64,000 bases of DNA from Patescibacteria group bacterium UBA926 (GTDB lineage: Bacteria; Patescibacteriota; Doudnabacteria; UBA920). The notes below the pieces were generated by a model. The model was given only the letters and a program-made list of their open reading frames with translations. It searched no databases and was not told the DNA's origin. This document shows, piece after piece, positions 27,863 to 49,728 of the stretch. Within the stretch, counting starts at the first letter, position 1. Each line of letters begins with the position of its first letter. The stretch is from the NCBI GenBank assembly GCA_002293685.1, contig DBDS01000002.1, positions 31,742-95,741 on the forward strand, given 5' to 3'. Made by a program: the position numbers and the translations under genes.

Positions 27863-27867
27863 AGTGA

Positions 27868-28306: not shown

Positions 28307-28350
28307 ATATTATCACATATTAGATTATCGCAATTTTCATGGTTGAGGCG

Positions 28351-28440
28351 AATTCGCGAAGCCGGCGAGTACCGAGCGAGTCGTAGTAGAACTACGGTGA
28401 GCAAGGAACGGAGCCGGCGACAAAGAAGTCGCTCAAAGCC
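28351..28440. repeat. family-2 hairpin element
   Basis: gaattcgcgaagccggcgag...gagtcgtagtagaactacggtgagcaagg...gacaaagaagtcgc. Confidence 0.6.
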
Positions 28441-28498
28441 ACTTTGCAAGTCCGGACTTGCTCCGGGCTAAAAAGTGGCGGCCATGGAAATTGCGGCC

Positions 28499-29080
28499 CT
28501 ACTTTCCTACAGCTTTAACAACTTTACCAGCCTTGCGCAAAATATTTTCGTCGCTGTATCGAATACCTTTACCTTTGTAAGGCTCCGGCTTCTTCAACTC
28601 GCGAATATTTGCAGCAACTTGACCAACTAAATGTTTGTCGATGCTAGTTAAGGTAATTGTTGTTTGATACTGCTGAATAGTAACTTTAGCTGGTTGCTTT
28701 TCTGCCTTTACTTCTACGCCATCAGGGATTGGAAAATCGATTGGGTGAGAAAAACCAAGGTTCAAAACTAAATCTTTACCACGAACTTCTGCCTTAAATC
28801 CAACGCCTACTACATCTAGTTCTTTAGTGAAACCGGTGGTTAAACCATCTACCATATTCTGAATCAACGAACGGAACAAACCCCAAAGAGCCTTTTCGCG
28901 CTTATCTTCTTTTTTAGCAACGTCTACCAATACTTCATTGTCTTTGACTTCAACTTTTACTTTTGGGTGAATTTCCAAAGTCAAAGTACCCTTACTACCC
29001 TTTACGGTAAGTACGTTGTCTTTCAATTCAGCAGTGATGCCGTTAGAAAGAATTACTGGTTTTTTTCCGATTCTTGACAT
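28499..29080 (-). CDS. rplF: 50S ribosomal protein L6
   Basis: MSRIGKKPV start and two L6 domains. Confidence 0.95.
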   Translation of the reverse strand: MSRIGKKPVILSNGITAELKDNVLTVKGSKGTLTLEIHPKVKVEVKDNEVLVDVAKKEDKREKALWGLFRSLIQNMVDGLTTGFTKELDVVGVGFKAEVRGKDLVLNLGFSHPIDFPIPDGVEVKAEKQPAKVTIQQYQTTITLTSIDKHLVGQVAANIRELKKPEPYKGKGIRYSDENILRKAGKVVKAVGK

Positions 29081-29181
29081 AGTGTCGTTATTAAAACTGA
29101 ATAAATAATGTTATCAAAACTTTTCCGTTTGTCCAAGTACGGCACGGATTGGTCGGGCAAAGCCCGCCCATCGCGTTCAGG

Positions 29182-29244
29182 CCATTTTCCGAGGAACTCT
29201 GGAGCCGTACTTTAGTTACGGTGACAGGGTTCCGAGGAAAATAA
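29182..29244. repeat. family-2 hairpin element
   Basis: ttccgaggaactctg-gagccgtac-tttagt-tacggtgac-agggttccgaggaaaataac. Confidence 0.6.
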
Positions 29245-29252
29245 CGAAGTAA

Positions 29253-29322
29253 TTGGACAAACCCGAAGGGTGAAGTTTGACTGAAAGTCTGAATTTACTT
29301 CAGACTGAAGTCAAACGAGCGG
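29253..29322. repeat. family-3 structured element (copy 2 of 3)
   Basis: ttggacaaacccgaagggtgaagtttgactgaaagtctgaatttacttcagactgaagtcaaacgagcg. Confidence 0.65.
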
Positions 29323-29333
29323 TAAAGTTTTAC

Positions 29334-29726
29334 CTACCAAATCTGACAAACAACTTCTCCACCAACACGATCTTTGCGGGCTTGTTTGTCTGTTAATAAT
29401 CCTTTCGAAGTTGAAACAACTGTAATACCGAAGCCACCATTAGTGCGAGGAATCTTTCCAACTGGCATGTAGATACGTTGTCCCGGAGTGCTAACACGCT
29501 TGATACCGGTAATCACAGGACTGCCTGTTTGAGCATACTTAAGATTGACTTGGAGCATTTTCACACGTCCAGGCAATTCGTTCACGCCAGATAGAAAACC
29601 TTCTTCATGAAGAACTTTTGCTAAGCTGTGCTTAAACTTTGAGTATGGCATTACCAAATCTTGCTTGCCAGCTGCAAGCGCATTACGGATTCGGGTTAAC
29701 ATGTCGGAAATTGGATCGGTATACAT
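29334..29726 (-). CDS. rpsH: 30S ribosomal protein S8
   Basis: MYTDPISDMLTRIRNA start. Confidence 0.95.
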   Translation of the reverse strand: MYTDPISDMLTRIRNALAAGKQDLVMPYSKFKHSLAKVLHEEGFLSGVNELPGRVKMLQVNLKYAQTGSPVITGIKRVSTPGQRIYMPVGKIPRTNGGFGITVVSTSKGLLTDKQARKDRVGGEVVCQIW

Positions 29727-29742
29727 GATAGTTAGTTGGTTA

Positions 29743-29937
29743 TTACCAAGAGGCCTTTGTTACGCCAGGGATTTCTCCACGGCTTGCTAATTCTCTAAAA
29801 CAGATACGGCATAAAGAAAAATCTCTCATAAAAGCTGCTTTACGACCGCACTTCAAACAACGCCTGATTACTCGAGTTGAGAACTTCGGGTTTTTTAAAC
29901 TGCGATTAGCTTTTGCGATTAAGGATTTCTTTGCCAT
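29743..29937 (-). CDS. rpsN: 30S ribosomal protein S14, Zn-binding type (64 aa)
   Basis: [12 protein letters not shown]... with the CLKCGR...CRIC zinc ribbon. The true start is the internal ATG at 29935-29937; the 101-aa track ORF is an upstream artefact. Confidence 0.9.
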
Positions 29938-29974
29938 ATGGTTGCTTGCTAAAGCGGTTTCAAATTCGGGGCAA

Positions 29975-30045
29975 GTTCGAGGCATTTCCCGAAGGGCGCT
30001 GGAGCCGTAATAAATGTTACGGTGACAGAGCCCTGAGGGAAATAA
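29975..30045. repeat. family-2 hairpin element
   Basis: catttcccgaagggcgctggagccgtaataaatgttacggtgacagagccctgagggaaataacaaag. Confidence 0.55.
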
Positions 30046-30075
30046 CAAAGAAATTGTCCGAATTTGGAAGCGCGA

Positions 30076-30615
30076 TTAATCTTTAAATGGGAACTTCATT
30101 GCCTTTAATAAGGCGTATGCTGGTTCATCTTTTCCAGCTGTAGTTGCAATCGTGACTTGAAGTCCGAAAATATGTTCGATTGCATCTTGAGAGATTTCTG
30201 GGAAAACCATGTGTTCTTTTAGACCAAGGTTGTAGTTTCCACGACCGTCGAAACCTTTTCGAGATACTCCGCGGAAATCTTTCACGCGAGGGAGACCAAT
30301 GCTGATCAATTTATCTAAGAATTCGTACATTCTTTGTCCACGCAAGGTAACGGTCATACCAACCACTTGCTGTTCACGAACTTTAAATCCAGCGATAGAT
30401 TTACGAGCCTTAGTTTCAACTGGTGCTTGACCTGCCAACTTTGTGAAGTCCTTTTTCAAAGATTCCATGAAGCGGTTATCCTTAAGGTACTTACCCACCC
30501 CAATGTTGAGGTTGATTTGCTTCACTTTAGGAACGGCCATCACGTTAGTGTAACCGAATTGCTCTTTCAAAGCAGGTGCAATCTGTTTATTATATTGTTC
30601 TTGTAAACGATTCAT
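30076..30615 (-). CDS. rplE: 50S ribosomal protein L5
   Basis: L5 sequence, 179 aa. Confidence 0.95.
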   Translation of the reverse strand: MNRLQEQYNKQIAPALKEQFGYTNVMAVPKVKQINLNIGVGKYLKDNRFMESLKKDFTKLAGQAPVETKARKSIAGFKVREQQVVGMTVTLRGQRMYEFLDKLISIGLPRVKDFRGVSRKGFDGRGNYNLGLKEHMVFPEISQDAIEHIFGLQVTIATTAGKDEPAYALLKAMKFPFKD

Positions 30616-30636
30616 AAGTGTAATTAAATACTTCTA

Positions 30637-30963
30637 TTAAACAGCTTTACCGCTTTTCTTAGCAATGCGTTGCTTGGTTCCGTTCTCTAAAATTTCATAA
30701 CCAACGCGAGTTGGTTTACCAGAACTTGGATCGATCAACATTACTTTGGATGAGGACATAGGACTTGCAAAACTCACCTTTTGAGAAACGCGCTGACGAG
30801 TACCACGTGGACGTTCATACTTAGTGTGAACATTCACATTCTCGACAACAACTTTATGGTCATCAGGAAGAACACGCAAAACTTTTCCAGTCTTACCTTT
30901 ATCTTTACCTGATAATACCTTTACGGTATCGCCTTTCTTAATTTTGAGCTTTACTTGTGTCAT
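30637..30963 (-). CDS. rplX: 50S ribosomal protein L24
   Basis: KOW motif KKGDTVKVLSGKDKGKTGKV. Confidence 0.95.
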   Translation of the reverse strand: MTQVKLKIKKGDTVKVLSGKDKGKTGKVLRVLPDDHKVVVENVNVHTKYERPRGTRQRVSQKVSFASPMSSSKVMLIDPSSGKPTRVGYEILENGTKQRIAKKSGKAV

Positions 30964-30974
30964 ATGTTTTCTAC

Positions 30975-31063
30975 GTCATCCTGAGTCCCTCGACGAGCTC
31001 GGGATAAACTCCGCAACTATGTTTCGGAGCCTGTCCTGAGCCTGCGAAGGATTCGGCATGACA
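30975..31063. repeat. family-1 palindromic element (variant)
   Basis: gtcatcctgagtccctcgacgagctcggg...ggagcctgtcctgagcctgcgaaggattcggcatgaca. Confidence 0.55.
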
Positions 31064-31069
31064 AATTAT

Positions 31070-31441
31070 TTAAATAACTTCTGGTGCTAATGATGCAATT
31101 TTGCTAAATCCAGCATCGCGAATTTCACGAGGGATTGGACCAAAGATACGAGTACCTTTTGGTTCACCTTTTTCTTTATCAACTAATACACCAGCATTTT
31201 CATCGAAACGGATGTAAGAACCATCTTTACGACGAATTTCTTTTTTCGTTCGAACAATTACCGCGTAAATCTTATCACCTTTTTTTACTGAACTGTTTGG
31301 TGCAGCTTGGCGAACAGACCCAGCAACAATATCTCCAACTCGAGCATAACGGCGTTTATTTTTTCCGTTCACGCTAAACAAGTTGACGACCTTGGCGCCA
31401 GTGTTATCTGCGATTTTAATGTAGGAACGAATCTGTAACAT
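31070..31441 (-). CDS. rplN: 50S ribosomal protein L14
   Basis: [10 protein letters not shown] motif and L14 fold. Confidence 0.95.
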
Positions 31442-31455
31442 AAATTTTGATTAGT

Positions 31456-31516
31456 TGTCATCCTGAACGCAGTGAAGGATCTATGGTTGAGATTCTTCGC
31501 TCCGCTCAGAATGACA
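31456..31516. repeat. family-1 palindromic element
   Basis: tgtcatcctgaacgcagtgaaggatct...gagattcttcgctccgctcagaatgaca. Confidence 0.65.
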
Positions 31517-31531
31517 GAGGTCAATTATTAA

Positions 31532-31774
31532 TTATACCTTCTTAAGTACAACGAATCTCTTGTCTTTGCTAATCGGACGACTTGATTCGATAATAACTTT
31601 ATCACCAATCTCACAAGTGTTTTCTTCGTCGTGTGCTTTGTAGCGGTAAGACTTAGTGTAGCTCTTGTGGTATTTTGGATGACGCTTAACTAAATCAACT
31701 TTAACAACAACGGTTTTATCCATTTTGTTAGAGATGACTGTTCCTGTAAGTTGTTGTTTAGTAGCTGTTGTCAT
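31532..31774 (-). CDS. rpsQ: 30S ribosomal protein S17
   Basis: S17 OB-fold sequence. The start is the internal ATG at 31772-31774 ([11 protein letters not shown]...); the track ORF is extended upstream. Confidence 0.9.
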
Positions 31775-31812
31775 ATAAATGTCTTGTCGTTCTGACACGT
31801 ACACCGCAGAAC

Positions 31813-31886
31813 GAGTAGAAGAATCTCTTAACAAGGGATCCTTCGACTCGGCCTTCGGCCTCGCTCAGGACGACACTTAAGTGTCG
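31813..31886. repeat. family-1-related partial element
   Basis: gaagaatctctt...gatccttcg...ccttcggcc...ctcaggacgacacttaagtgtcg matches the right half of the 36682-36761 element. Confidence 0.5.
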
Positions 31887-31887
31887 A

Positions 31888-32070
31888 TTAATTTGCTCTT
31901 AAGAAAGTTAGAATTCGAGCGATATCCTTACGAACAATTGAAAGTTGATTGGTGTTCTTAACCTGCCCCAGCTTTACTTTCATTCTGAGGTTCTCACGCT
32001 TCTCCTGCAAAGAAACTAGTTCTTTGTGAAGATCTTCAATAGGTTTTTTAGATAGGTCTGAATACTTCAT
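31888..32070 (-). CDS. rpmC: 50S ribosomal protein L29
   Basis: L29 helical hairpin MKYSDLSKKPIEDLHKELVSLQEKRENLRMK... Confidence 0.9.
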   Translation of the reverse strand: MKYSDLSKKPIEDLHKELVSLQEKRENLRMKVKLGQVKNTNQLSIVRKDIARILTFLRAN

Positions 32071-32104
32071 ATTAGTGTTATTAAACAAGCGAGAAAGTTT
32101 AGAG

Positions 32105-32512
32105 CTATTGTTTGATTAAGAATTTAGTCTTTACTGGAAGTTTGTGGGCAGCGAGTCTCATCGCTTCACGCGCTGCAGGTTCAGTAACTCCATCCATTTC
32201 GAATAGAATACGACCCTTTTTTACAACAGCTACGAAGTGAGAAACTGCACCTTTACCACTACCCATCACAGATTCATTACCATGATCAGTAATTGGCTTA
32301 TCAGGGAAAATCCGAATCCAGATCTTACCACCACGCTGTACACTGCGGGTCATGGCACGACGAGCTGCTTCAATTTGGCGAGCAGTAACGAAACGGCCTT
32401 CCATCGCTTTTAGAGCGAAGTTGCCGAACGCAATGCTGTTACCAGAAGTAGCCTTACCTTTGTTATGACCGCGATGATGTTTGCGGTGTTTGACTTTCTT
32501 TGGAATTAACAT
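32105..32512 (-). CDS. rplP: 50S ribosomal protein L16
   Basis: [15 protein letters not shown] start. Confidence 0.95.
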
Positions 32513-32525
32513 ATGTTTATTAGTC

Positions 32526-32576
32526 TGTCATCCTGAGCGCAAGCAAGAATTTTTTCTTGGCTGTGCTCAGAATGAC
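32526..32576. repeat. family-1 palindromic element
   Basis: tgtcatcctgagcgcaagcaagaattttttcttggctgtgctcagaatgaca. Confidence 0.65.
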
Positions 32577-32599
32577 AGCGGATTGATAGATGATTAAAC

Positions 32600-33253
32600 T
32601 TACTTGGTCTTATTCTCGAATACGTCGCCACGATAGATCCACACTTTGATTCCGATTGTTCCGTAAGTTGTGTGAGCAGTAGAACGAGCAAAGTCGATAT
32701 CAGCGCGTAAAGTATGAAGAGGAATCTTACCGGCTGACAAATGTTCGGTACGAGCAATTTCTGCTCCGTTCAGACGACCACCGATTGCAACCTTTACACC
32801 CTTCGCGCCTGCTTGCATAACTTGTTCTAACGCTTGCTTCATGAGTCTACGGAAAGCAACACGACGTTCGATTTGCTCAGCGATTCCGTTTGCAATAACT
32901 TGCGCATGTAAGTTGATATCGCGATCTTTAATCTCTTCGATATTAACCTTGAGTTCGCTCTTAATCTTTAGTTGTTGCTTCACTCGCTTCTTTAACTCTT
33001 CGATACCTGCGCCACCTTTACCGATAATTAAACCTGGTTTGGTGGTGTGAACTACGATAGTAATTGTACCGTCGTTGAGGCGTTCGATGTCGATACGAGA
33101 AAGTCCCGCTTTACGCAAGTGCTTTTCAAGGTATTCACGAATCTTGATGTCTTCGTGCAATTGAGCAACATAGTTGCCCTTTGAAAACCACTTGGACTTC
33201 CAAGTATCGGTAATCTTTAAACGAAATGAAGTTGGATTAATCTTATGTCCCAT
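32600..33253 (-). CDS. rpsC: 30S ribosomal protein S3
   Basis: MGHKINPTSFRLKITDTWKSKWF plus KH and S3-C domains. The start is the ATG at 33251-33253. Confidence 0.9.
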   Translation of the reverse strand: MGHKINPTSFRLKITDTWKSKWFSKGNYVAQLHEDIKIREYLEKHLRKAGLSRIDIERLNDGTITIVVHTTKPGLIIGKGGAGIEELKKRVKQQLKIKSELKVNIEEIKDRDINLHAQVIANGIAEQIERRVAFRRLMKQALEQVMQAGAKGVKVAIGGRLNGAEIARTEHLSAGKIPLHTLRADIDFARSTAHTTYGTIGIKVWIYRGDVFENKTK

Positions 33254-33271
33254 AATTTGAGAGGTGAATTC

Positions 33272-33400
33272 TGTCATCCTGAACGCAGTGAAGGATCTTT
33301 ACTTGAGATTCTTCTCGGAGTTTATCCCCGCGCAGGCGGGGACTCAGAATGACAGTTAGTGGAGATCCCTGCTTTCGCAGGGACGGCACAAAGTGCCGAT
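33272..33400. repeat. family-1 palindromic element plus adjacent extra hairpin
   Basis: tgtcatcctgaacgcagtgaaggatct...ccccgcgcaggcggggactcagaatgaca, then ggagatccctgctttcgcagggac. Confidence 0.6.
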
Positions 33401-33404
33401 TAAA

Positions 33405-33971
33405 TTACTTTTGTAAGTTTTCTGGAGAAGTTTTTACTTTAGAATCAGTCGCTTCGTTTTCGCGGTGAACTTCTTTCACTTTAGGTTCAGGCTTAAGTTT
33501 AGAAACAGATTCAGCTTCAGCTTTACCAAGTTGACCTTCTTGAGTCTGGATTGGTTCAGCTTTCTTCTTAGCCTTTGGAAGCTTAGCAGAACTTTTCGGT
33601 TTTGCATCGCGCTCTTCAAGCACTACGTTCACATGTGCCATTTTGCGTCGGATAACGAATGCGCTACCACGGGCTCTTGGGAACATACGCTGAAGTACAG
33701 GACCCATGTCAGTTGTAATACTCTTGATAAATAATTGCTCACCTTTTAATGAAAAATTATTCTCAGCATTTGCTACAGCCGAACGCAATAATTTGGATAC
33801 CATTCCAGCAGCCTTTTTATTGGTGAACTGGAGTTGAACCAAAGCGTCTGCAACGCGCATGTTCTTCACCAAGTTTGTAACTAGGCGAATCTTGCGAGGA
33901 GAGATGCGGAGATTGCGTGCATGAGCTCTCACTTGAGGCTTGTTATTCGGTTGTGCGACTTTTTCTGCCAT
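33405..33971 (-). CDS. rplV: 50S ribosomal protein L22 with long C-terminal K/E-rich extension
   Basis: L22 core (RISPRKIRLVTNLVKNMRVADALVQLQF) plus about 70 extra C-terminal residues. Confidence 0.9.
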   Translation of the reverse strand: MAEKVAQPNNKPQVRAHARNLRISPRKIRLVTNLVKNMRVADALVQLQFTNKKAAGMVSKLLRSAVANAENNFSLKGEQLFIKSITTDMGPVLQRMFPRARGSAFVIRRKMAHVNVVLEERDAKPKSSAKLPKAKKKAEPIQTQEGQLGKAEAESVSKLKPEPKVKEVHRENEATDSKVKTSPENLQK

Positions 33972-33982
33972 ATGATTTCATC

Positions 33983-34044
33983 GTTATCCTGAGCACAGCG
34001 AAGGATCTTTCTAGAAAAGACACTTCACAGCACTCAGCATAACA
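33983..34044. repeat. family-1 palindromic element (variant)
   Basis: gttatcctgagcacagcgaaggatct...cacttcacagcactcagcataac. Confidence 0.5.
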
Positions 34045-34052
34045 TTACATTA

Positions 34053-34331
34053 TTATTTTCCTGCCTTTTGTTCCTTCGCAAGTTTACCACCGTGACCGAT
34101 GAACTTACGAGTCGGAGCGAATTCGCCCAACTTATGTCCCACCATGTTTTCTGTAACGAAAACTTCGGTGTGCTGTTTGCCATTGTGTACGAGGAAAGTA
34201 AAACCAACCATTTCTGGGGCAATGGCACAAGCTCGTGACCAAGTCTTGATGCGATCGCCAGGTTTGCCGGCAAGCACTTTCTTGAGTACACGAGGATCGA
34301 TGTATGGACCTTTTTTTAAACTTCTAGACAT
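34053..34331 (-). CDS. rpsS: 30S ribosomal protein S19
   Basis: [19 protein letters not shown] start. Confidence 0.95.
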
Positions 34332-34354
34332 ATATATAGATAAATTTTCTATCC

Positions 34355-34415
34355 TGTCATCCTGAACGCAGTGAAGGATCTATAATTGAGATTCTTCGCT
34401 CCGCTCAGAATGACA
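34355..34415. repeat. family-1 palindromic element
   Basis: tgtcatcctgaacgcagtgaaggatctataattgagattcttcgctccgctcagaatgaca. Confidence 0.65.
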
Positions 34416-34430
34416 GAGAGAATTGTATAA

Positions 34431-35273
34431 TTAACGCTTCTTCACGCGACGCTTAACAATAAACTTACCAGACGGTTTCTTCTTATCGCGGGTTTTCACA
34501 CCGAGCGCATGCTTACCCCAAGGAGTCTTAGGATATTTCAAACCGATTGAGTTACTACCTTCACCACCACCATGAGGGTGATCTACTGGGTTCATAACTT
34601 TACCTCGAACGCTTGGTCTCCATCCCATGTGGCGCTTACGACCAGCTGTTCCGATTCGTACGTTCATCCAGTCTGAGTTAGACATCGAGCCGATTGTAGC
34701 GCAAGCAGTTTCGCGAACTTTACGGATTTCACCAGAAGGAAGTTTAAGGAATGCATAACCACCTTCTAAGTTTTGCAACAACACACTAGCACCTGCACTG
34801 CGAGCTAACTTACCACCATGACCAGGAATTAATTCCACATCATGGATGAAGCTTCCAACTGGAATGCTTGCAAGTGACATTCTGTTACCAGGATGGATTT
34901 CGGCTGTTTCACTATACACTACTTTATCGCCAACTTTTAAGCCAGCAGGTGTTAAGATGAAACGCTTAACTCCATCGTTGTAAGTAATAAGAGAAATAAA
35001 TGCGGTGCGAGTTGGATCGTATTCAACTGTTTTCACTGTACCAGGAATGTTCTTTCGGTCGGCACGGTTGAAATCAACAATACGAACTTTCTTGTTAGCA
35101 CCACCACCACGGTGTCGAACAGTAATCTTACCAGAGTTATTACGACCGGCGTTCTTCGCTTTGCTCATTATCAAAGACTTCGGAGTTTTCTCAGTCTTTT
35201 TTAAAACGGAATAATCGGTCACACTTTGCTTGCGACGTCCCGGTGTAGTTGGTTTGTATACTTTTACTGCCAT
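34431..35273 (-). CDS. rplB: 50S ribosomal protein L2
   Basis: L2 sequence with GRNNSGKITVRHRGGG. Confidence 0.95.
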   Translation of the reverse strand: MAVKVYKPTTPGRRKQSVTDYSVLKKTEKTPKSLIMSKAKNAGRNNSGKITVRHRGGGANKKVRIVDFNRADRKNIPGTVKTVEYDPTRTAFISLITYNDGVKRFILTPAGLKVGDKVVYSETAEIHPGNRMSLASIPVGSFIHDVELIPGHGGKLARSAGASVLLQNLEGGYAFLKLPSGEIRKVRETACATIGSMSNSDWMNVRIGTAGRKRHMGWRPSVRGKVMNPVDHPHGGGEGSNSIGLKYPKTPWGKHALGVKTRDKKKPSGKFIVKRRVKKR

Positions 35274-35274
35274 A

Positions 35275-35356
35275 TTGTTAGTTAGTAGTGGGTAGATTGT
35301 AGTGAGCAGGATACAGGAATGTTCTATATTCTACTTACTACAATCTACTTACTAAT
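35275..35356. repeat. intergenic inverted repeat (gtagattgtagt / actacaatctac)
   Basis: 12-bp perfect IR in the rplW-rplB spacer. Confidence 0.45.
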
Positions 35357-35764
35357 TTAGGTAGGTTCTACTATATTAATCTTCTTACTGTCTTTGGTTA
35401 AGGTAATCATAGCTTTCTTGAAACCGCTGCGTTGTCCAACTTTACGACCGAATGTACGGCTCTTGCCTTGGACTTGAATCATGTTAACGTTGGCAACTTT
35501 TACACCATACATTTTTTCAACCGCGCGACGAACTTCGATTTTGTTCAACTTACCATAAACAGTGAAAATGTATTGATTGAAACGATCTACGAAACCAGCT
35601 TTTTCAGAAATTCTTGGAACTATTAAACCTTTGTTACCAAGACCACTATGAGGCACGTCTAACATCGCAGGAGCTTCAGCTTCTTTTTTCGGTTCATCAG
35701 ACGCAGTAGTAGTTTCTACCTTGATTTCGTCTTCTGTATTTTCTTTTTTAGAAAATAATGCCAT
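35357..35764 (-). CDS. rplW: 50S ribosomal protein L23 with N-terminal acidic extension
   Basis: L23 core KIEVRRAVEKMYGVKVANVNMIQVQGK; about 40 extra N-terminal residues. Confidence 0.9.
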   Translation of the reverse strand: MALFSKKENTEDEIKVETTTASDEPKKEAEAPAMLDVPHSGLGNKGLIVPRISEKAGFVDRFNQYIFTVYGKLNKIEVRRAVEKMYGVKVANVNMIQVQGKSRTFGRKVGQRSGFKKAMITLTKDSKKINIVEPT

Positions 35765-37764: not shown

Positions 37765-38088
37765 TTAACTCATTTTAATTTCTACATCAACCCCAGCTGG
37801 AAGGCTTAAGTTGGTGAGAGAATCGATGGTTTTAGGCGTAGCTTCTGTGATATCGATCATACGCTTGTGTGTGCGCATTTCGAACTGTTCACGGCTATCT
37901 TTGTGCACGAAAGTTGAACGCAATACAGTGTATTTGCGCTTCGCGGTCGGCAAAGGAACTGGTCCCGAAATGGTTGCCCCAGTGCGCTTAGCTGTTTCAA
38001 CGATCTGCTTTGCGCTTTGATCAATTAACTTGTGATCGTACGCGCGGATCTTGATGCGAATTTTCGGCTTGTGTTCGCCTTTTTCCAT
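37765..38088 (-). CDS. rpsJ: 30S ribosomal protein S10
   Basis: [16 protein letters not shown] motif. The probable start is the ATG at 38086-38088 (MEKGEHKPK...); the track ORF starts at an upstream TTG. Confidence 0.9.
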
Positions 38089-38180
38089 AAAATGAATTGA
38101 CAATATGCTTGTTTCTCGCTTATTTATGCGTTAAACAGCAATTAAAATTGCTTAGCTACTTAGCTAGCAAACTAAGACCA

Positions 38181-38244: not shown

Positions 38245-38273
38245 TTTGACAAAAAGTGCTATAAATAGTATAA
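38245..38273 (+). promoter_or_regulatory. perfect-consensus sigma70 promoter TTGACA-N17-TATAAT
   Basis: gtTTGACAaaaagtgctataaatagTATAATgtg, about 35 bp from and divergent to the S10 promoter. Confidence 0.7.
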
Positions 38274-38309
38274 TGTGTAAAGTAAATTTCAGTATCTATG
38301 GAGGATATA

Positions 38310-38734
38310 TGTTGAAAAGTATCGTATTTGGAGGCATGAGCAGCCAAGAGTTTGTAATCGTCTACACTATTATGAATTCAAGATGTGTCTTTACACAAGC
38401 TGTGCCGCGCAACAATTGCATTACCATAAATTGGGCCGAAGAAATTATCGGAGAGATTATGGATAACGAAAAGCGTAGATATGACCGATTTTATAACTTA
38501 CTGATTATCAGGAAGCATCGGCCATTCGTACCTGTTCACGAGTCAAGGCCTCATCTGGAGTTTTGCGAAGTGATTAGCAAGCTTGAAGATAAGCCCGATC
38601 ATTCCACTGATTTCAAACACACCCGATTCCCCGATCAACTTCGCGAAGTTTTCAATGGGTTGATACCGAATAACGTGAAGCAGAAATCAAAGATGGTCGC
38701 TTCAGGATTCGGACAAAAGATCCATTCTTGGTAA
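38310..38734 (+). CDS. orphan 141-aa hypothetical protein
   Basis: GGAGG 6 nt upstream of the ATG. Preceded by the consensus promoter and followed by a strong terminator. No recognisable domain. Confidence 0.55.
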
Positions 38735-38767
38735 ATTTCAGGATTTCCTCAACGATAACTAATTAGA

Positions 38768-38793
38768 AGAGCCGCTCCCCGGCTCTTTTTTAT
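38768..38793 (+). terminator. rho-independent terminator
   Basis: agagccg-ctccc-cggctct followed by ttttttatt. Confidence 0.7.
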
Positions 38794-38832
38794 TATCCCA
38801 ACAAAAAACTCCCCAATTTCTGGGGGAGTTTT

Positions 38833-38866: not shown

Positions 38867-40048
38867 TTATTTGTTGATTTTAACAACAACACCTGCACCT
38901 ACAGTTCGGCCACCTTCACGGATAGCGAACTTACCTTTTTCTTCCAAAGCGATCGGAGTGATCAACTTTACGTCGATGGTAACGGTGTCACCAGGCATAA
39001 CCATTTCTTGGCCTTCTGGCAAGATTACTTCACCAGTCACGTCGGTTGTACGAACGTAGAACTGTGGCTTGTAACCCTTGAAGAATGGAGTGTGACGTCC
39101 ACCTTCTTCTTTGGTCAAGATGTAAACTTCAGCAGAGAACTCAGTGTGAGGAGTGATAGAACCAGGCTTAGCCAAAACTTGGCCGCGCTCAACTTCTTCT
39201 TTCTTAACACCACGGAGCAATAGACCAGCGTTGTCACCAGCCATACCCTTGTCGAGCTGCTTGTTGAACATTTCAACACCAGTTACAACGGTCTTTGAAG
39301 TAGGTTTGATACCAACAATTTCAACTTCTTCGTTGATATTGATAACACCACGTTCGATACGACCTGTAACTACAGTACCGCGACCTTCAATTGTGAAGAT
39401 ATCTTCGATAGGCATTAAGAAAGGCTTATCGGTTTCGCGGGTTGGTTCAGGGATGAAAGTATCCAATGCTTCTACAAGCTTAAGGATAGTTTCTTCGTTT
39501 GCAGCATCTCCTTCGAGAGCTTTCAACGCAGAACCACGGATGATAGGAGTTTCAGCTCCTGGGAATTCGTACTTGCTTAGAAGATCACGAATTTCTTCTT
39601 CCACAAGATCCAAAAGTTCTGGATCGGAAACTTGGTCTACCTTGTTCATGTAAACAACGATAGAAGGTACACCTACCTGACGAGCGAGCAAGATGTGTTC
39701 GCGAGTCTGAGGCATAGGACCGTCTGCAGCTGATACTACAAGAATCGCACCATCCATTTGAGCAGCACCGGTAATCATGTTTTTGATGTAGTCGGCGTGA
39801 CCTGGACAGTCAACGTGAGCGTAGTGACGCTTGTCGGATTCGTATTCGCTGTGTGAGGTATTAATAGTAATACCACGAGCTTTTTCTTCTGGCGCGTTGT
39901 CGATTTGGTCGTAAGCCTTAGCTTTTGCCTTACCAGACTTCGCAAGCACAGTAGTGATAGCAGCGGTCAAAGTTGTCTTACCATGGTCAACGTGGCCGAT
40001 GGTTCCCACATTCAAATGGGGCTTTGAGCGATCAAATTGTTCTGCCAT
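38867..40048 (-). CDS. tuf: elongation factor Tu
   Basis: [23 protein letters not shown] and NKVD G-domain motifs; full-length at 393 aa. Confidence 0.97.
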
Positions 40049-40295: not shown

Positions 40296-40335
40296 TTGCG
40301 AGCCGTACTAATAGTACGGTGAGCGACTAGCGGAA
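40296..40335. repeat. family-2 hairpin element
   Basis: gcgagccgtactaatagtacggtgagcgactagcgg. Confidence 0.55.
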
Positions 40336-40351
40336 ACTTTTGACAAAGAAA

Positions 40352-40422
40352 TTGGGCAAACCCGGAGGGCGAGTTTGATTGAAAGTCTGAATTTACTTCA
40401 GACTGAGATCAAACGAGCGACG
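40352..40422. repeat. family-3 structured element (copy 3 of 3)
   Basis: ttgggcaaacccggagggcgagtttgattgaaagtctgaatttacttcagactgagatcaaacgagcg. Confidence 0.65.
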
Positions 40423-43053: not shown

Positions 43054-43896
43054 TTATTTAGATTTTTTCTGTATAAAAGTAATCTGTTCTGAACCGTCTT
43101 TTCTATCTAATCGATATATTTCCAATAGACCGTTTTCTCTTATTTCCACTAACTCGCCGAAATTACTTGTCAGGTTAAAAACTTGTCCGTTTTCTGGTTT
43201 TGTAATTTTGGGAGGTGGAATTATACCATCCGTATGATCTATATATTTCGCCATCATATTTGTTAAATCTGTAACATCAGGGTCCTGCTGACGCTTGATT
43301 TGGGTTTGATCACTTTGCCATGTCATATATTTCATACAGCTGTCAGTGCCATCCTTATACCTATAATCCAAACCTGAAGACCATCCCATATATTGACAAA
43401 GTAGCTTATTTCTCCAAAAGACATTACCGAAAACTGATGTTTTATCAAAGAGCGCACCATCATTAAAGATGAAAAGTGCATCAGTGATGTGCCCAGAATC
43501 AGGGATATGGCCGTAAGTCCCTAAGGCTAACACACCATAATCGGGATCATTAATTGTACAAAAATTCATGTATCCAACATATATAAAACACTCTTCAGAC
43601 TCATCCCCTGGCACAATACTAAAATTTAAAGCTCCGTTACTTTCCCAATTAGCTATTGCTCTAGTAAAATGTATGTCCCAACCTCTGGAAGCGCTATCTA
43701 AAAGTGCAACCTGGCCATGAGCCCAATGCGGTGATGGTTCTTCATTGGCACTTGAGCTTAATGGTTGCGGTGCATAAGAACTGTAATAGCGAACGTAGAC
43801 TAAACCTGCGGCGGCAGTTATCACGAATAGAGCAAGTAATAAATTGATTCTGTGCTTGGAATTCCATTTTTTTAGGAACTTTGACATATTTTTCAT
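43054..43896 (-). CDS. hypothetical membrane-anchored protein
   Basis: N-terminal TM helix; no recognised motifs. Confidence 0.45.
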   Translation of the reverse strand: MKNMSKFLKKWNSKHRINLLLALFVITAAAGLVYVRYYSSYAPQPLSSSANEEPSPHWAHGQVALLDSASRGWDIHFTRAIANWESNGALNFSIVPGDESEECFIYVGYMNFCTINDPDYGVLALGTYGHIPDSGHITDALFIFNDGALFDKTSVFGNVFWRNKLLCQYMGWSSGLDYRYKDGTDSCMKYMTWQSDQTQIKRQQDPDVTDLTNMMAKYIDHTDGIIPPPKITKPENGQVFNLTSNFGELVEIRENGLLEIYRLDRKDGSEQITFIQKKSK

Positions 43897-43999
43897 GAAT
43901 TATTTTAACTCACCTTAAGTATAAGTAAATGAGACTGAACGAAGAAATGACTTATCCACAAAAAAAACCGCCCCGAAGGGCGGTTTTTATAAACAGATA

Positions 44000-46123
44000 T
44001 TATTGCCCCTTACGAACATTCATGCCCGCGCGAGATTCAATAATATTAGCAGCAACATTTTTTGGAACTTCTTCGTAGTGATCGAATTCCATAATAGAAG
44101 ATGCTTGACCTTGGGTCATAGAGCGAAGTTGTGTCGCGTAACCAAACATTTCGGCTAGCGGTACAAAGGCAGTCACAACTTTGCGACCAGTGATATCTTC
44201 CATATCTTGTACTTTCGCGCGCTTAGAGTTCAAGTCACCGATAACGTCTCCCATGTTCGCTTCTGGGGTAGTTACTACAACTTTCATCACCGGTTCAAGT
44301 AGTACAGGATCACCTTTCTTGACGGCTTCTTGTAAACACTTGGATGCAGCAATTTTGAAAGCCATTTCCGAAGAGTCAACTTCGTGATAGCTACCATCAT
44401 AAACAGCAGCTCGGAAGTCTACTAATGGGTAACCAGCGATCACACCGTTAGCAGCAGATTCTTGAATACCTTTATCAATTGGCTTGATGTATTCTTTTGG
44501 AATTACACCACCCACAATCTCATCAACGAATTCATAACCCTTACCTTGTTCAAGAGGTTCAACACGCAAGTAAACGTGACCATATTGACCGCGTCCACCA
44601 GACTGACGAATATACTTTACTTCTGCTGTTGCAGTTTTCTTGAAAGATTCTTTGTAAGCAACTTCTGGCTTACCAACGTTCGCTTCAACTTTGAATTCTC
44701 GCTTCATACGATCGACAAGAATTTCCAAGTGAAGCTCGCCCATACCAGCAATAATAGTTTGCTGAGTTTCATCGTTGGAAGAAACTTTGAAAGTTGGATC
44801 TTCTTCCGCAAGCTTTTGCATCGCGATACCCATTTTTTCTTGGTCCGCTTTAGTCTTCGGTTCAATCGCCATCGAAATAACTGGATCAGCGAATTTAATC
44901 TTTTCTAATTCGATTGGAGAGTTCTCGGCACAAAGAGTGTCGGCTGTGATTGTGTCCTTTGGACCAACCAACGCACAAATGTCTCCGGCGAAAACCTCTT
45001 TTACTTCGTCACGTTGATCGGCGCGCATACGCACAATACGACCAACACGTTCACGGTTACCAGTACGACCGTTAAGTACGTAAGAACCAGCGGTCAAAGT
45101 TCCAGAGTAAACACGGAAGAAAGCAAGGCGTCCTACGAAAGGATCGGTTGCGATTTTGAAAGCAAGCGCTGTAAATGGTTCATCATCACTTGGATTGCGA
45201 AGTAGCTCTTCACCAGTTTTTGGATTGTGGCCTTTAACAGGACCCTTGTCCAAAGGAGATGGTAAGAAGTTTGTAACAGCATCGAGCAATGTGCGTACGA
45301 TAATTCCGCGACCATCACCACCGAATACAGGATAGAAGTCGCCGGATCGAGTAGCTTTACGAATGGCTTGTAAAATTTCCTCTTCGGAAAGTTCTTTACC
45401 TTCTAAGTATTTCTCCATTAACTCATCGTCAAACTCTACAATTTTTTCGATTAGTTCATGGCGGTATTTCTCGGCCTTTTCTTTCATATCAGCTGGAACT
45501 TCACCGATTGTAAATTCTTTGTCTGTGAAATCCTTATAAGTGTAAGACTTCATAGTTACTAAGTCGACAACACCAACAATGTCTTTTTCGAAACCAATCG
45601 GCAGTTGAACTGGAAAAGCGTTCTTGGTTAAGCGGTTATGAATTGAATCCAAAGACTTGTAGAAGTCGCCGCCAGTTTGGTTAATCTTATTGATGAAGCA
45701 CATGCGTGGTACGCCATACTTGTCGGCTTGGCGCCAGACAGTTTCGGATTGAGGTTCAACACCCATTTTACCGTCAAATACGGTAATCGCACCGTCGAGT
45801 ACGCGCAAAGAGCGCTCTACTTCTACTGTGAAGTCTACGTGACCTGGAGTGTCGATAATGTTGATTTTATATTCCTTGTCACCTTCAATCTTGATGTATT
45901 GAGGTTTCCAGTAACAAGTAACAGCCGCGGAAGTGATAGTGATACCACGTTCGCGTTCTTGTTCCATCCAATCGGTAACGGTTTCACCTTCGTGAACTGC
46001 ACCGATCTTGTGGATCATACCGGTGTTGTACAAAATACCTTCGGTAGTTGTAGTTTTGCCGGCGTCGATGTGAGCGATAATCCCGATATTACGGGTCGCT
46101 TCTATTGGATATTCTCTGGGCAT
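44000..46123 (-). CDS. fusA: elongation factor G
   Basis: [20 protein letters not shown] and NKMD motifs; 707 aa. Confidence 0.97.
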
Positions 46124-46129
46124 GTTAAT

Positions 46130-46158
46130 TTGAATAAATACTAATTTTTAAATATAAT
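46130..46158 (+). promoter_or_regulatory. promoter-like TTGAAT-N17-TATAAT
   Basis: tTTGAATaaatactaatttttaaaTATAATtg, upstream of the 46177 ORF. Confidence 0.5.
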
Positions 46159-46176
46159 TGAATTAAGGAGGTGGAG

Positions 46177-46398
46177 ATGGTACTGGTTAAAGGCAAAATT
46201 CGACAAATGGGCTCTGAGGAATGGGAATCATTCGAAGAAAGTGTCGAACCCAGGATTGATACCAAACCTGAGAACATGCGTAGACAAATGAAAATGCATT
46301 TTCATTTGGTAGATGGCGAGGAGATCGAAATCGAATCGATCATATCTCATGCTGTTATTGCGTTCAGTAATGAACCGCAAACAGAGATTAGCTTTTAG
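46177..46398 (+). CDS. orphan 73-aa acidic hypothetical protein between fusA and rpsG
   Basis: AGGAGG 6 nt upstream of the ATG; own promoter; the stop lies in the loop of a plus-strand-specific terminator. Confidence 0.5.
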   Translation: MVLVKGKIRQMGSEEWESFEESVEPRIDTKPENMRRQMKMHFHLVDGEEIEIESIISHAVIAFSNEPQTEISF

Positions 46399-46420
46399 CT
46401 GGTCTCTTTTTTATTTTCTC
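46384..46420 (+). terminator. rho-independent terminator (plus-strand specific, has U.G pairs)
   Basis: agagattagc-tttta-gctggtctct followed by tttttatttt. Confidence 0.55.
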
Positions 46421-46968
46421 TTATTTCCGAAACGGGCGAAGTGAGCAAATGCTTTGTTTGCTTCAGCCATACGGTGAGTATCATCGCGCTTCTTCACAGC
46501 AGTTCCCTGCTTGTTGAACGCATCCATGATTTCTTGCGCAAGCTTTTGCGCCATAGGAGCGCCTTTGCGTGAACGCGCTGCAGCAATCATCCATTTCATA
46601 CCTAATGCTGTGCGACGTGGCTCTTGCACTTCCATAGGAACTTGGTAGTTTGAACCACCAATGCGACGACCTTTAATTTCCATAATTGGAGATACATTTT
46701 TCAATGCGATATCAAAAATCTGGCGAGGGTCGGTAATTTTTGCATCTGCAACTTCAGCAACAGAACCATCTTGTTCTTTGCTAGCTGGTGCAGAATTTTT
46801 AGACATCTTTTCTTCAACGATATCTAGCGCAGTGTAGAAAATTTTCTGTGAAGTTGTCTTCTTACCGCGTTCCATCAAATAGTTGATGAATTTTGCATAC
46901 TTAACACTGCTGAACTTTGGATCTGGTTCAGGTACGTGCTTTTCAAAACTTCTTGCTCTTCGTGGCAT
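46411..46968 (-). CDS. rpsG: 30S ribosomal protein S7
   Basis: MPRRARSFEKHVPEPDPKF start. Confidence 0.95.
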   Translation of the reverse strand: MPRRARSFEKHVPEPDPKFSSVKYAKFINYLMERGKKTTSQKIFYTALDIVEEKMSKNSAPASKEQDGSVAEVADAKITDPRQIFDIALKNVSPIMEIKGRRIGGSNYQVPMEVQEPRRTALGMKWMIAAARSRKGAPMAQKLAQEIMDAFNKQGTAVKKRDDTHRMAEANKAFAHFARFGNKRK

Positions 46969-47049
46969 CTTAGTTTTTCCTTTCAGAATTCCCGGAAGCG
47001 AAGCTATCCGGGATCTAGACCCCGGCTCTTCGGCCGGGTATACTTTTTT

Positions 47050-47475
47050 CTAAGCGGCGGCTGATGGACGCTTAGTTCCATACTTTGAACGAGAGCGTTT
47101 TCGACCGTCAACGCCTAGGGTGTCCAATTTACCACGAACAATGTGGTAGCGCACACCAGGTAAATCTTTTACACGACCACCGCGGATCATTACCACACTG
47201 TGTTCCTGTAAATTGTGACCAACACCAGGAATGTACGCGAGTACTTCCATGCCGTTAGTTAATTTAATCTTGGCTACTTTACGCAAAGCCGAGTTCGGCT
47301 TCTTTGGAGTAGTTGTATAAACTTTTAGACAAACCCCTCGCATGAACGGGCTACCTGTCTTGATGAACAATGTCTTGTTCTTGATTAAGTTCTGACGGCG
47401 TTGTAGGGCCGGAGACTTACTCTTGGTTTGGGCAAGTTTTCTTGGCTTGCGAACCAACTGGTTAATAGTAGGCAC
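47050..47475 (-). CDS. rpsL: 30S ribosomal protein S12
   Basis: [13 protein letters not shown] start and the [11 protein letters not shown] region. Confidence 0.97.
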
Positions 47476-47543
47476 TTCTTTGACCTTTCGTGGGATGACA
47501 CGTCCCTATTAATTTTTTACTAAGCTACTTATGTGATTGAGGT

Positions 47544-47672
47544 GAATTCGCGAAGAAATACGCGGCTATTTCGAGCCGTACTAAAGGTACGGTGAGAAAT
47601 AACGTAAGTATTTCGACAAAGAATTCGCCCAAAGCTTTATGTAAGTCCAAACTTGCTTTGGACTGCATAAAG
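47544..47672. repeat. family-2 hairpin element plus adjacent nested hairpin
   Basis: gaattcgcgaagaaatacgcggctatttcgagccgtactaaaggtacggtgagaaataacgtaag...gacaaagaattcgccc, then ctttatgtaagtccaaacttgctttggactgcataaag. Confidence 0.6.
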
Positions 47673-47899
47673 GGTTCACATAATGTAGCTAAAACAAAAA
47701 CTGACCTAAGAGTCAGTCTCTTTGGCTCACGCACGCGGTACTCTGACGAAGCCTTATCAGATAACTTCCCGCTTAACGCGACAATGTGTCAGTAATTCCT
47801 TAAGTTGGGGCTTCTAATGAATTATGAGAATATTATAGAAGATTGTTCAGGTTTAGTCAACACTTATTATTCAATGGAATAATTCTAAATCAAGGAGTT

Positions 47900-48508
47900 T
47901 TAAATATTAAATATTCGAAAGAAGATGCCTGTAACTAAACTATAGATAGGTGTGAATAGGCCTGAAAGAACAAAGATCATAACAAGAATAAAACCAAATC
48001 GCTCTAGTTCCAAAAATTTATACATATACTTATCCGGAAGTAGAGTTGCTAAAATCTTACTTCCGTCTAACGGTGGGATAGGTAATAGATTAAATACACC
48101 AAGTACTAGATTAAGAACCACGGCAATTTTCCAAATCTCAGCCATAAATCCATCGATCAAACCAAATGTTAATGGTAAGGCGAAAATAATCGCTAAAATA
48201 AAATTGGATGCGGAACCAGAGATCGAAACAAGGACCATTCCTAGTTTACGGGGTCGTAAATTCTCAAATTGCACTGGCACAGGATTTGCATATCCAAACA
48301 GAAACGGACTGCCTAAAAAGAGCAGTAATCCTGGTAAAAGAATCGAGCCGATCGGATCAATGTGAGGAATTGGATTAAGTGTAATGCGACCTGCATCACG
48401 GGCTGTACTGTCCCCTAATTTTTCTGCAACTAATGCATGGCAAATTTCATGTACTATAACTGAGAATAATAAAATTGGGAGGAAAATTAAAATACTATAT
48501 ATATCCAT
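47900..48508 (-). CDS. site-2 protease family (M50) intramembrane zinc metalloprotease
   Basis: HEICHAL HExxH motif in a TM helix; multi-TM. Confidence 0.85.
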   Translation of the reverse strand: MDIYSILIFLPILLFSVIVHEICHALVAEKLGDSTARDAGRITLNPIPHIDPIGSILLPGLLLFLGSPFLFGYANPVPVQFENLRPRKLGMVLVSISGSASNFILAIIFALPLTFGLIDGFMAEIWKIAVVLNLVLGVFNLLPIPPLDGSKILATLLPDKYMYKFLELERFGFILVMIFVLSGLFTPIYSLVTGIFFRIFNI

Positions 48509-48599
48509 TTCTTAATTTTAGCATAATCAAATATGCTAAGAAAGTTGATCATTTTTAAGGATTACTCATTAGTGAGTCTGGTGCCCAAACACCCTACAC

Positions 48600-48628
48600 T
48601 TGCCAATTCTTTTATATTCCAGTATACT
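48600..48628 (+). promoter_or_regulatory. promoter-like TTGCCA-N17-TATACT for rpmB
   Basis: cTTGCCAattcttttatattccagTATACTtag. Confidence 0.5.
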
Positions 48629-48686
48629 TAGCAAGTATCATTTTTATAACCAAATCGGCACATCGCCGAATTAACAAAGGATTACT

Positions 48687-48884
48687 ATGCCAAGAATGTG
48701 TACCACTTGCGGCAAAACTTACTCTAAAACTATCAAGCGTTCTCACTCAATGAGAGCATCTATTGTCCGATTGAAATCCAATCTCCAATGGACACGCAAT
48801 GAAGATGGAAATCGAGTGAAAGCTTGTACCAGCTGCATTAAAGCAAAAACCAAGAAAGCTACTAAAGCCAAAATCGCTGCATAA
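48687..48884 (+). CDS. rpmB: 50S ribosomal protein L28
   Basis: MPRMCTTCGKT...RSHSMRAS...NLQ...C-x2-C L28 pattern; AAGGA Shine-Dalgarno; terminator follows. Confidence 0.85.
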   Translation: MPRMCTTCGKTYSKTIKRSHSMRASIVRLKSNLQWTRNEDGNRVKACTSCIKAKTKKATKAKIAA

Positions 48885-48892
48885 GAAATACC

Positions 48893-48925
48893 CCCGCTTA
48901 CGCGGGGGTATTTTGTTTATGAGCG
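48893..48925 (+). terminator. rho-independent terminator of rpmB
   Basis: atacccccgc-tta-cgcgggggtat followed by tttgtttat. Confidence 0.7.
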
Positions 48926-49038
48926 GCACAAGTGATATCTTTCGTCGAGCCGCAGGGCTACGCTTCAAGTAATTTTCTTTAGAAAATTACTTGAGCTGGG
49001 CCCAGAGCCTCTCCTTTAAGATATCACTTGTGCCGCTT
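48921..49038. repeat. palindromic unit with a perfect 20-bp TIR and nested 11-bp palindrome
   Basis: gagcggcacaagtgatatctt ... aagatatcacttgtgccgctt; inner caagtaatttt-ctttag-aaaattacttg. Confidence 0.6.
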
Positions 49039-49084
49039 AAAAATGGGGTGGAATGAGAGATACATTCCTGCTCTGATTCGCTAC

Positions 49085-49190
49085 TTAAGAAAGGCTGGGG
49101 TGATTTGCCGTATCCACCCAATCGCTACGCTCCGCTTGCAGCGGAGCTGGGCGAATGGGTTCCACTTACAAACCACCTCAGCCTTTCTTA
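49085..49190. repeat. palindromic unit with a 23-bp imperfect TIR and inner GC hairpins
   Basis: ttaagaaaggctggggtgatttg ... caaaccacctcagcctttcttaa; inner gctccgc-ttgca-gcggagc. Confidence 0.55.
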
Positions 49191-49240
49191 AAATATAGGG
49201 AAGAAGAAAAATGCATTCCATTCTTCCCATTCCATTTTCA

Positions 49241-49327
49241 CTGGCGGGTGGTGCCGCCTGGAGGCCCTCCGACCGCCCGCACGGAGGAGGACGGTTGGAG
49301 GTAGGCGGCGACAGGACCCGCCGAGTC
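49241..49327. repeat. GC-rich hairpin unit
   Basis: actggcgggtggtgccgcctggaggccctccgaccgcccg...gacaggacccgccgagt. Confidence 0.45.
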
Positions 49328-49330
49328 ATA

Positions 49331-49358
49331 CTAAAACCCCGCCATAAGGCGGGGTTTG
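49331..49358 (-). terminator. rho-independent terminator of the cupin gene
   Basis: On the minus strand: aaaccccgcc-ttat-ggcggggtttt. Confidence 0.6.
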
Positions 49359-49362
49359 TAAT

Positions 49363-49728
49363 TTAGTGGTGTTCAGCTTCATCAGCTTCGGCTTTGGTTT
49401 TATGAACAGTTGCGTTCTCGTGTTCAGGTGGACTGTAAATCGTAAATAGCTTTAGAGGTGAATCCCCTGTATTAATAAAGTTATGCTTAGTGGTAGCAGG
49501 AACATTTGCTACATCCCCGGCAGCAAACTCTTCTTCGCGTCCTTCAAATACAGCTTTACCTGAACCGGCTACAAAATATAAAATTTGGTCTAAGTCATGT
49601 TCTTCTTCGCCGATCTCTTCGCCTGGGTTGATACACATCAACACAAGTTGTGAATGAGAATTAGTAATTAAGACTCGACGAAAATCGGTGTTATCAAGGG
49701 TAAGTTTGTGAAGATTTTTTGTAATCAT
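49363..49728 (-). CDS. cupin-domain protein
   Basis: Small beta-barrel cupin motifs (GEEIGEEEHD...GSGKAVFEG). Confidence 0.7.
   Translation of the reverse strand: MITKNLHKLTLDNTDFRRVLITNSHSQLVLMCINPGEEIGEEEHDLDQILYFVAGSGKAVFEGREEEFAAGDVANVPATTKHNFINTGDSPLKLFTIYSPPEHENATVHKTKAEADEAEHH

Follow-up and report, generated by a model that had tools for sequence, protein, structure and literature searches.

Within the 64-kb stretch of DNA analyzed in this study (the window), rpsL, rpsG and fusA all lie on the - strand, as do most of the large ORFs (67 of 69), and the GC skew is negative along the entire window. The spacer between rpsG and fusA is 287 bp long and contains a small ORF on the + strand, antisense to both neighbors. 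Is this ORF a gene, how did it come to lie inside the str operon, and how is fusA expressed across it? A sequence-only reading had proposed a 73-aa gene inserted antisense into this spacer, with a promoter, a Shine-Dalgarno (SD) site and a terminator of its own. Our results from this study indicate that the 73-aa unit is a real, young gene and that it belongs to a pattern which recurs in a lineage-specific manner. It is probably a recently acquired, self-contained accessory micro-gene that runs against rpsL-rpsG-fusA and is tolerated only in the orientation that spares rpsG-fusA read-through, and the locus is accordingly a candidate noncontiguous operon. The nearest species representatives among the matches listed were Saccharibacteria metagenome-assembled genomes, whose S7 proteins were 65-69% identical to that of the window. 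The features of the locus and of related loci are given in Table 1.

Table 1. Features of the rpsG-fusA locus, similar units elsewhere in the window and rpsG-fusA inserts of other genomes
Feature	Position in window or insert length	Strand	Description
fusA (EF-G)	44000-46123	-	
rpsG-fusA spacer	46124-46410		287 bp
Sigma-70-type promoter-like site	46130-46158	+	TTGAAT-N17-TATAAT; 10/12 positions match
Inserted segment	46133-46410		~278 bp; absent from sister genomes (BLASTN and MAFFT against L163, L164 and L166)
Shine-Dalgarno site	46165-46172	+	AAGGAGGT; AGGAGG core at 46166-46171, 5 nt before ATG
73-aa ORF	46177-46398	+	ATG at 46177; stop codon TAG at 46396-46398
Perfect palindrome	46285-46308		24 bp; arms CAAATGAAAATG and CATTTTCATTTG; inside 73-aa ORF
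Predicted intrinsic terminator	46383-46417	+	Stem-loop 46383-46407; U-run 46408-46417
rpsG (ribosomal protein S7)	46411-46968	-	Pfam Ribosomal_S7, 5.8e-53
rpsL (ribosomal protein S12)	47050-47475	-	
Probable str operon promoter	47832-47860	-	TTGACT-N17-TATAAT
Two 42-aa single-helix membrane peptides	1195-1323, 1308-1436	+	Between pgk and gap (both -)
141-aa orphan ORF	38309-38734	+	Antisense, between tuf (38867-40048) and rpsJ (37765-38103)
L084 insert	365 bp		Small antisense ORF; consensus promoter 11/12
L003 insert	543 bp		Small antisense ORF
L004 insert	852 bp		Antisense ORF, 89 aa; consensus promoter 10/12
L169 insert (complete genome CP064996.1)	360 bp		Antisense ORF, 71 aa
L171 insert	1091 bp		Two antisense genes, one of 92 aa

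The spacer length, the + strand ORF, the promoter-like hexamers and the AGGAGG site named by the sequence-only reading were all recovered. The promoter-like site is 7 nt from the start codon of fusA and its -35 box spans the fusA-side boundary of the insertion. Similar consensus promoters were also found upstream of the str operon, rpmB and the 141-aa + strand gene. The 73-aa gene would have a 5' UTR of just ~12 nt, which puts the SD at the predicted start of its mRNA or close to it. At the other end, the terminator stem consists of 11 pairs, of which two are G.U, and is followed by TTTTTTATTTT, a U-run that overlaps the stop codon of rpsG. On the + strand the hairpin had a folding energy of -13.7 kcal/mol and the U-run, whereas on the - strand it reached -8.8 kcal/mol, contained an internal loop and two C.A mismatches and lacked the U-run. 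As had been claimed from its G.U pairs, the element is thus predicted to be a terminator for + strand RNA only. Given that this terminator precedes rpsG, the + strand transcript should not enter rpsG. On the - strand of the spacer, no terminator-like site was found. The best promoter matches of the insert on that strand were 8/12, with none of at least 9/12 that could serve fusA, and no SD was found for fusA. From the sequence we infer promoter, terminator and co-transcription at this locus.

Taken singly, such motifs were not enriched in the AT-rich window: AGGAGG occurred 13 times with 17 expected, and promoter matches of at least 10/12 occurred 21 times with 22 expected. The ORF itself was therefore tested with codon-frequency models for all six frames, trained on 60 large genes of the window. 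Its codon-usage score was 0.29 nats per codon above that of the best other frame, which corresponded to the 77th percentile of 200 equal-length segments of real genes and exceeded the scores of all 108 shadow ORFs overlapping real genes. Moreover, at 46075-46450 GC and AT skew locally flipped to strongly positive, which is what a gene coded on the strand opposite to its neighbors should produce. The ORF thus looks coding, in agreement with the earlier proposal.

Sister genomes (L163-L166) were found via an S7 protein search followed by look-ups of their contigs. Their rpsG products were 95% (L163), 92% (L164/L165) and 83% (L166) identical to that of the window, and the flanking DNA of L163 was 87-90% identical at the nucleotide level. 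All of them share the neighborhood of the window, which comprises P-type ATPase, cupin, M50 peptidase, rpsL, rpsG and fusA genes, and yet their rpsG-fusA spacers are only 12-13 bp. Homology between the sister genomes and the window ends at 46132 and restarts at 46411. Judged from these alignments, the ~278-bp segment in between is a recent insertion immediately 3' of the rpsG stop codon, which agrees with the view of the sequence-only reading that the gene had been inserted. The segment is present in three independent assemblies and is thus no assembly artefact.

Two of the three assemblies carry the intact 73-aa allele. In the third, L001, a 7-bp tandem duplication, which falls in the right arm of the palindrome, shifts the frame after residue 44. 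Apart from this duplication, the three copies of the ORF differ solely by a non-synonymous substitution in L002 (K30N). A frameshift allele together with a sole substitution that is non-synonymous indicates that constraint on the ORF is weak or absent. The palindrome itself is the longest in the 64 kb; its 12-nt arm was reached by none of 100 simulated sequences, no second copy turned up in the window even when up to 3 mismatches were tolerated, and as an RNA hairpin it has a folding energy of -8.3 kcal/mol. A mutational hot spot, a site bound by protein and an RNA hairpin are all conceivable roles for it. A second perfect palindrome, of 22 bp, was seen at 18786-18807 within an ORF of 1144 aa. 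The contig of L001 also diverges from the window exactly at a repeat copy upstream of rpsL and runs on into rpsR and efp, which suggests either a rearrangement or an assembly switch.

The insert was also considered as an insertion sequence, a MITE or another repeat-type mobile element, which are marked by terminal inverted repeats, target-site duplication and multiple copies. These were rejected: no terminal inverted repeats were found in the insert, and no second copy was present in the window or in the 171 fetched loci. No match to the insert was found among viral contigs or phage and plasmid records.

The 73-aa protein was acidic, with a pI of 4.8 and 15 acidic versus 8 basic residues, and hydrophilic (GRAVY -0.52), and no membrane or hydrophobic helix was found in it. 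No domain family was assigned to it, as previously stated: the best Pfam match had an E-value of 0.05 and 13.8 bits against a cutoff of 25, the best PHROG match (0.024) was not significant and PADLOC gave none. A word-indexed protein search returned only two strain-level copies. HMMER, run exhaustively against 1.84 billion representatives, added only two matches to longer proteins (P0003 and P0004), of which P0003 was rejected as spurious because it is a tandem-repeat translation. AlphaFold2, run on the single sequence, gave a pLDDT of 43 and no confident fold, which was too poor for a fold search. By these searches the 73-aa protein is an orphan. It is most likely a dispensable, lineage-specific accessory product. 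The sequence-only reading had held that an ORF without conservation would speak against a gene. Conservation is indeed lacking, with only strain-level copies of which one is frameshifted, but the + strand gene is retained here, because the insertion is very young and such a pattern is then not evidence that there is no gene.

These same observations are what a neutral or decaying passenger would leave behind, that is, a recent insertion, be it a short-lived proto-gene or a piece of foreign DNA, whose ORF is not kept by selection and which is harmless to fusA in this orientation. The orphan status of the protein, the failure of AlphaFold2 to find a confident fold, the L001 and L002 alleles and the absence of the segment from sister genomes of 87% identity are all consistent with it. 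A passenger, however, would not be expected to display a complete promoter-SD-ATG-ORF-terminator set in the correct order, codon usage typical of the real genes of this genome and an intact allele in two of three assemblies. It is thus a possible but unlikely account of the locus. If the read-through model described below is wrong, the unit would be a young, dispensable orphan gene at a permissive site, and the locus would reflect ordinary genome flux.

The accessory micro-gene proposed here is not the only one of its kind at the rpsG-fusA junction. Among 146 listed loci, the rpsG-fusA spacer had a median of 59 bp and about one in five exceeded 150 bp, so that the earlier statement that rpsL-rpsG-fusA is almost universally contiguous was too strong. 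Spacers of >150 bp were mostly from bacteria of the candidate phyla radiation (CPR), and some of them contained extra genes. Comparison of synteny across relatives, which the sequence-only reading had recommended, revealed the tight junction in the sister genomes and unrelated small antisense genes in five further genomes of the wider clade (Table 1). The ORFs in these five inserts were 43, 64, 71, 83, 89 and 92 aa long, and all were on the strand opposite to rpsG and fusA. They were preceded by an SD-type site at proper spacing, mostly AGGAGG but AGGAG for the 92-aa ORF of L171, and each was followed by a hairpin and U-run that work in the antisense direction only. The small proteins of the window and of the five genomes showed no significant homology to one another, and the 89-aa protein of L004 is an orphan, too. 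The six spacers likewise showed no significant homology except for two short blocks. One is a 13-nt block, CAAAGAGAGAGAG, common to L003 and L004. The other is a 20-nt promoter/5' UTR block, GATAyAGTTTGATGTTCrAAC, found on the antisense strand at 3290-3330 of L169 and 4030-4070 of L171, where it surrounds the -10 box and 5' UTR of otherwise unrelated ORFs. This bias in orientation comes from five or six loci, of which L169 and L171 may not be independent since they share this block. In more distant CPR genomes, sense or antisense genes or larger inserts were found at this junction, and the spacers of L168 and L170 were 40 and 33 bp, respectively.

Other traces of change were also seen at this junction. 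Short repeats of the ACTACGGAT / CTACAGA type were clustered right after rpsG in L003 (4574-4640), L004 (1450-1510) and L171 (3041-3080) and were absent from the window. In L167, the 142-bp rpsG-fusA spacer (4080-4221) contained a duplicated 5' end of fusA (ATGCCCCGAGAATACCCCATTGAAGACATTCG...) followed by a GC-rich hairpin, which looks like the scar of an insertion or deletion.

Similar units were also found elsewhere in the window. Most of its large ORFs have no SD: GGAG or GAGG occurs within 20 nt of the start in roughly a tenth of them. Those intergenic ORFs that clearly follow an SD are without exception on the + strand and between core genes on the - strand. Between pgk and gap, a two-gene micro-operon (1121-1477) has a TTGACA-17-TTTAAT promoter and GGAGGTG before each of its two ORFs; it faces the end of gap, and its terminator (1447-1470) overlaps the stop codon of gap. 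The 141-aa unit (38246-38800), whose product had no Pfam match, has a promoter matching at 12/12 positions (38246-38274), a GGAGG SD and a terminator. With this unit, an orphan gene on the opposite strand breaks the str-S10 cluster a second time. Strongly SD-led orphan micro-genes are thereby flagged as a class in CPR genomes that are sparing in SD use. Routine annotation can miss such genes: in the look-up of the L169 locus no gene was called for its 71-aa ORF, although the ORFs of the window and L004 were called in other assemblies.

It might be proposed that, in the Saccharibacteria clade of the window, the rpsG/fusA, tuf/rpsJ and pgk/gap junctions, which are part of core gene clusters of translation and glycolysis, are recurrent landing sites for promoter-SD-ORF-terminator micro-cassettes that are invariably antisense and bear a strong SD in a genome where most genes have none, produced either by an undescribed process of small-gene acquisition or generation or by selection for a growth-rate antisense switch. 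This proposal goes further than the candidate micro-gene at one junction and is distinctly unlikely. If it were true by way of the switch, accessory small proteins would be made only when growth slows.

Several further observations concern the spacers of the window. Many ribosomal-protein genes (e.g., 26743-35764) are preceded by a repeated motif of the TCAGGATGAC type and by unusually long intergenic spacers of 100-270 bp. Dispersed intergenic repeats of ~80% identity with hairpin modules are found at 47540-47623, 40296-40420, 25226-25310, 29244-29327 and 27859-27938. A long gap between the M50 peptidase and cupin genes (48509-49362) contains a + strand rpmB-like ORF (48687-48884) with a weak L28 match and a GC-rich stretch (~48990-49370) with ORFs overlapping on both strands; no Rfam hit was found in this gap. 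The rpsL-rpsG spacer (46969-47049), the position of S7 autoregulation in E. coli, contains a GC-rich hairpin, CCCGGC-TCTT-CGGCCGGG, at 47021-47038. Finally, on the - strand at 47686-47860, the near-consensus str promoter is followed by a ~135-nt non-coding element (47690-47825), which is 97% identical to its counterpart in L163, compared with 87-90% in the adjacent coding DNA, and is also conserved in L165 and L166. An intrinsic terminator (47721-47696 plus T-run) closes the element shortly before rpsL, and no Rfam match to the element was found. It looks like a candidate undescribed attenuator-type leader or small RNA before rpsL-rpsG-fusA.

The functional product of the + strand unit could also be the RNA itself, acting as a cis-antisense RNA against the rpsG-fusA intercistronic region and tuning the ratio of EF-G to S7 by transcriptional interference or double-stranded RNA processing. 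This resembles the suggestion of the sequence-only reading that convergent transcription into rpsG could modulate read-through of the str operon. The + promoter is next to the start of fusA and its transcript is complementary throughout to the sense RNA of the spacer, the palindrome is located mid-transcript, and differing sequences, always antisense, occupy this junction in different genomes. In addition, the + strand RNA was more structured than shuffled controls, with z values from -2.4 to -4.0. In its minimum-free-energy fold, the 5' start region pairs with the 3' half of the terminator via G.U pairs, and this fold-back competes with the terminator hairpin; it was found only in the cassette of the window and not in those of the relatives. 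No RNA family was found in the spacer by Rfam (43500-48500 searched at E up to 1, and the whole window at the gathering threshold). However, a perfect SD, an optimally spaced ATG and gene-like codon usage would be useless to a pure RNA regulator, the sister species manage with a spacer of 12-13 bp and the terminator would halt + strand transcription before rpsG. A purely regulatory RNA is therefore improbable.

It is very improbable that the ORF is a chance reading frame in a non-coding spacer with motifs that coincide in AT-rich DNA. The individual motifs are not enriched, as described above, and an open frame of ~75 codons is not rare at 37% GC. Against chance stand the ordered promoter-SD-ATG-ORF-terminator set, the codon score above all shadow ORFs, the skew flip, the absence of the segment from the sister genomes and the recurrence of the same gene-like layout at five further loci and at two more sites in the window. 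A type I toxin-antitoxin-like module, in which the mRNA of a small toxic protein is checked by the overlapping str transcript, can scarcely be credited: the antisense overlap, the strong SD, the pairing predicted between the 5' start region and the 3' half of the terminator and the single-helix hydrophobic peptides of 42-64 aa in the cassettes of L003, L084 and the window (1195/1308) are suggestive of it, but the 73-aa product is hydrophilic and has no membrane helix, no dedicated promoter for a - strand antitoxin was found beyond the 8/12 matches, the pairing is not seen in relatives, and the tolerated L001 frameshift is uninformative on toxicity.

For the accessory micro-gene favored here, the following model is proposed. 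Because no terminator-like site and no promoter match better than 8/12 were found on the - strand of the insert, read-through is the simplest explanation for fusA expression, and fusA would be expressed from the probable str promoter (47860-47832), the putative source of the sense transcript crossing the insert. The 12-13 bp junction of the sister genomes is indirectly in line with such a transcript. The mRNA of the small gene would then be complementary over its full length to the rpsG-fusA intercistronic RNA. Since a terminator in sense orientation would sever the essential fusA from its promoter, insertions would survive in antisense orientation alone, and this could explain both the antisense orientation and the one-way terminators of the junction genes in this clade. 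During fast growth, heavy transcription of the str operon would keep the small gene low via promoter occlusion, polymerase collision and double-stranded RNA, and the small gene would be made mainly when transcription of the ribosomal operon falls. If this model is right, the 12-13 bp junction of the sister genomes and the 287-bp junction with its antisense gene form a before-and-after pair, which shows a noncontiguous operon arising in a highly conserved and highly expressed bacterial operon and insertions being shaped by the orientation and strand specificity of terminators.

Similar to the canonical str operon (rpsL-rpsG-fusA-tufA), the locus preserves the order and orientation of the genes. 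The tight rpsG-fusA junction that is usual for this operon and is kept by the sister genomes is, however, broken here by a 278-bp antisense gene cassette, and tuf is also split from rpsJ by the antisense 141-aa gene. Integration hot spots are sites where accessory genes land between core genes. Here, too, one core-gene junction holds different and unrelated accessory genes in the window and in L084, L003, L004, L169 and L171. Different from integration hot spots, the site interrupts an operon and its cargo consists of just one micro-gene (43-92 codons), and signatures of mobility such as an integrase, a tRNA or repeats are not visible. The locus also resembles type I toxin-antitoxin loci in that a small SD-led ORF lies under full antisense overlap, with the antisense transcript predicted in this case, and some sibling cassettes encode short hydrophobic peptides as such loci do. 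Different from them, the 73-aa product is acidic and soluble and a dedicated antitoxin RNA gene is absent.

The closest known arrangement is the noncontiguous operon, which is described as an extreme form of the excludon (Saenz-Lahoya et al. 2019 as cited in PMC11034616; Iturbe et al. 2024, PMC11034616; review PMC7154746). In a noncontiguous operon, a gene on the opposite strand is overlapped over its full length by the operon transcript and the two transcripts repress each other (PMC11034616). In S. aureus, 8 noncontiguous operons include a gene for a small peptide (<50 aa), which is the antisense member in 7 of them, and noncontiguous operons are not predictable computationally (PMC11034616). 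The layout is the same at the locus of this study, with rpsG (-), the 73-aa ORF (+) and fusA (-) in succession; the class is defined by co-transcription across the antisense gene and by mutual repression of the overlapping transcripts via transcriptional interference and RNase III, and the present locus is a candidate member. Different from the known noncontiguous operons, it is the str operon of core translation genes that hosts the antisense gene, and the arrangement reflects a very recent insertion rather than a conserved design, with an antisense gene that varies from genome to genome.
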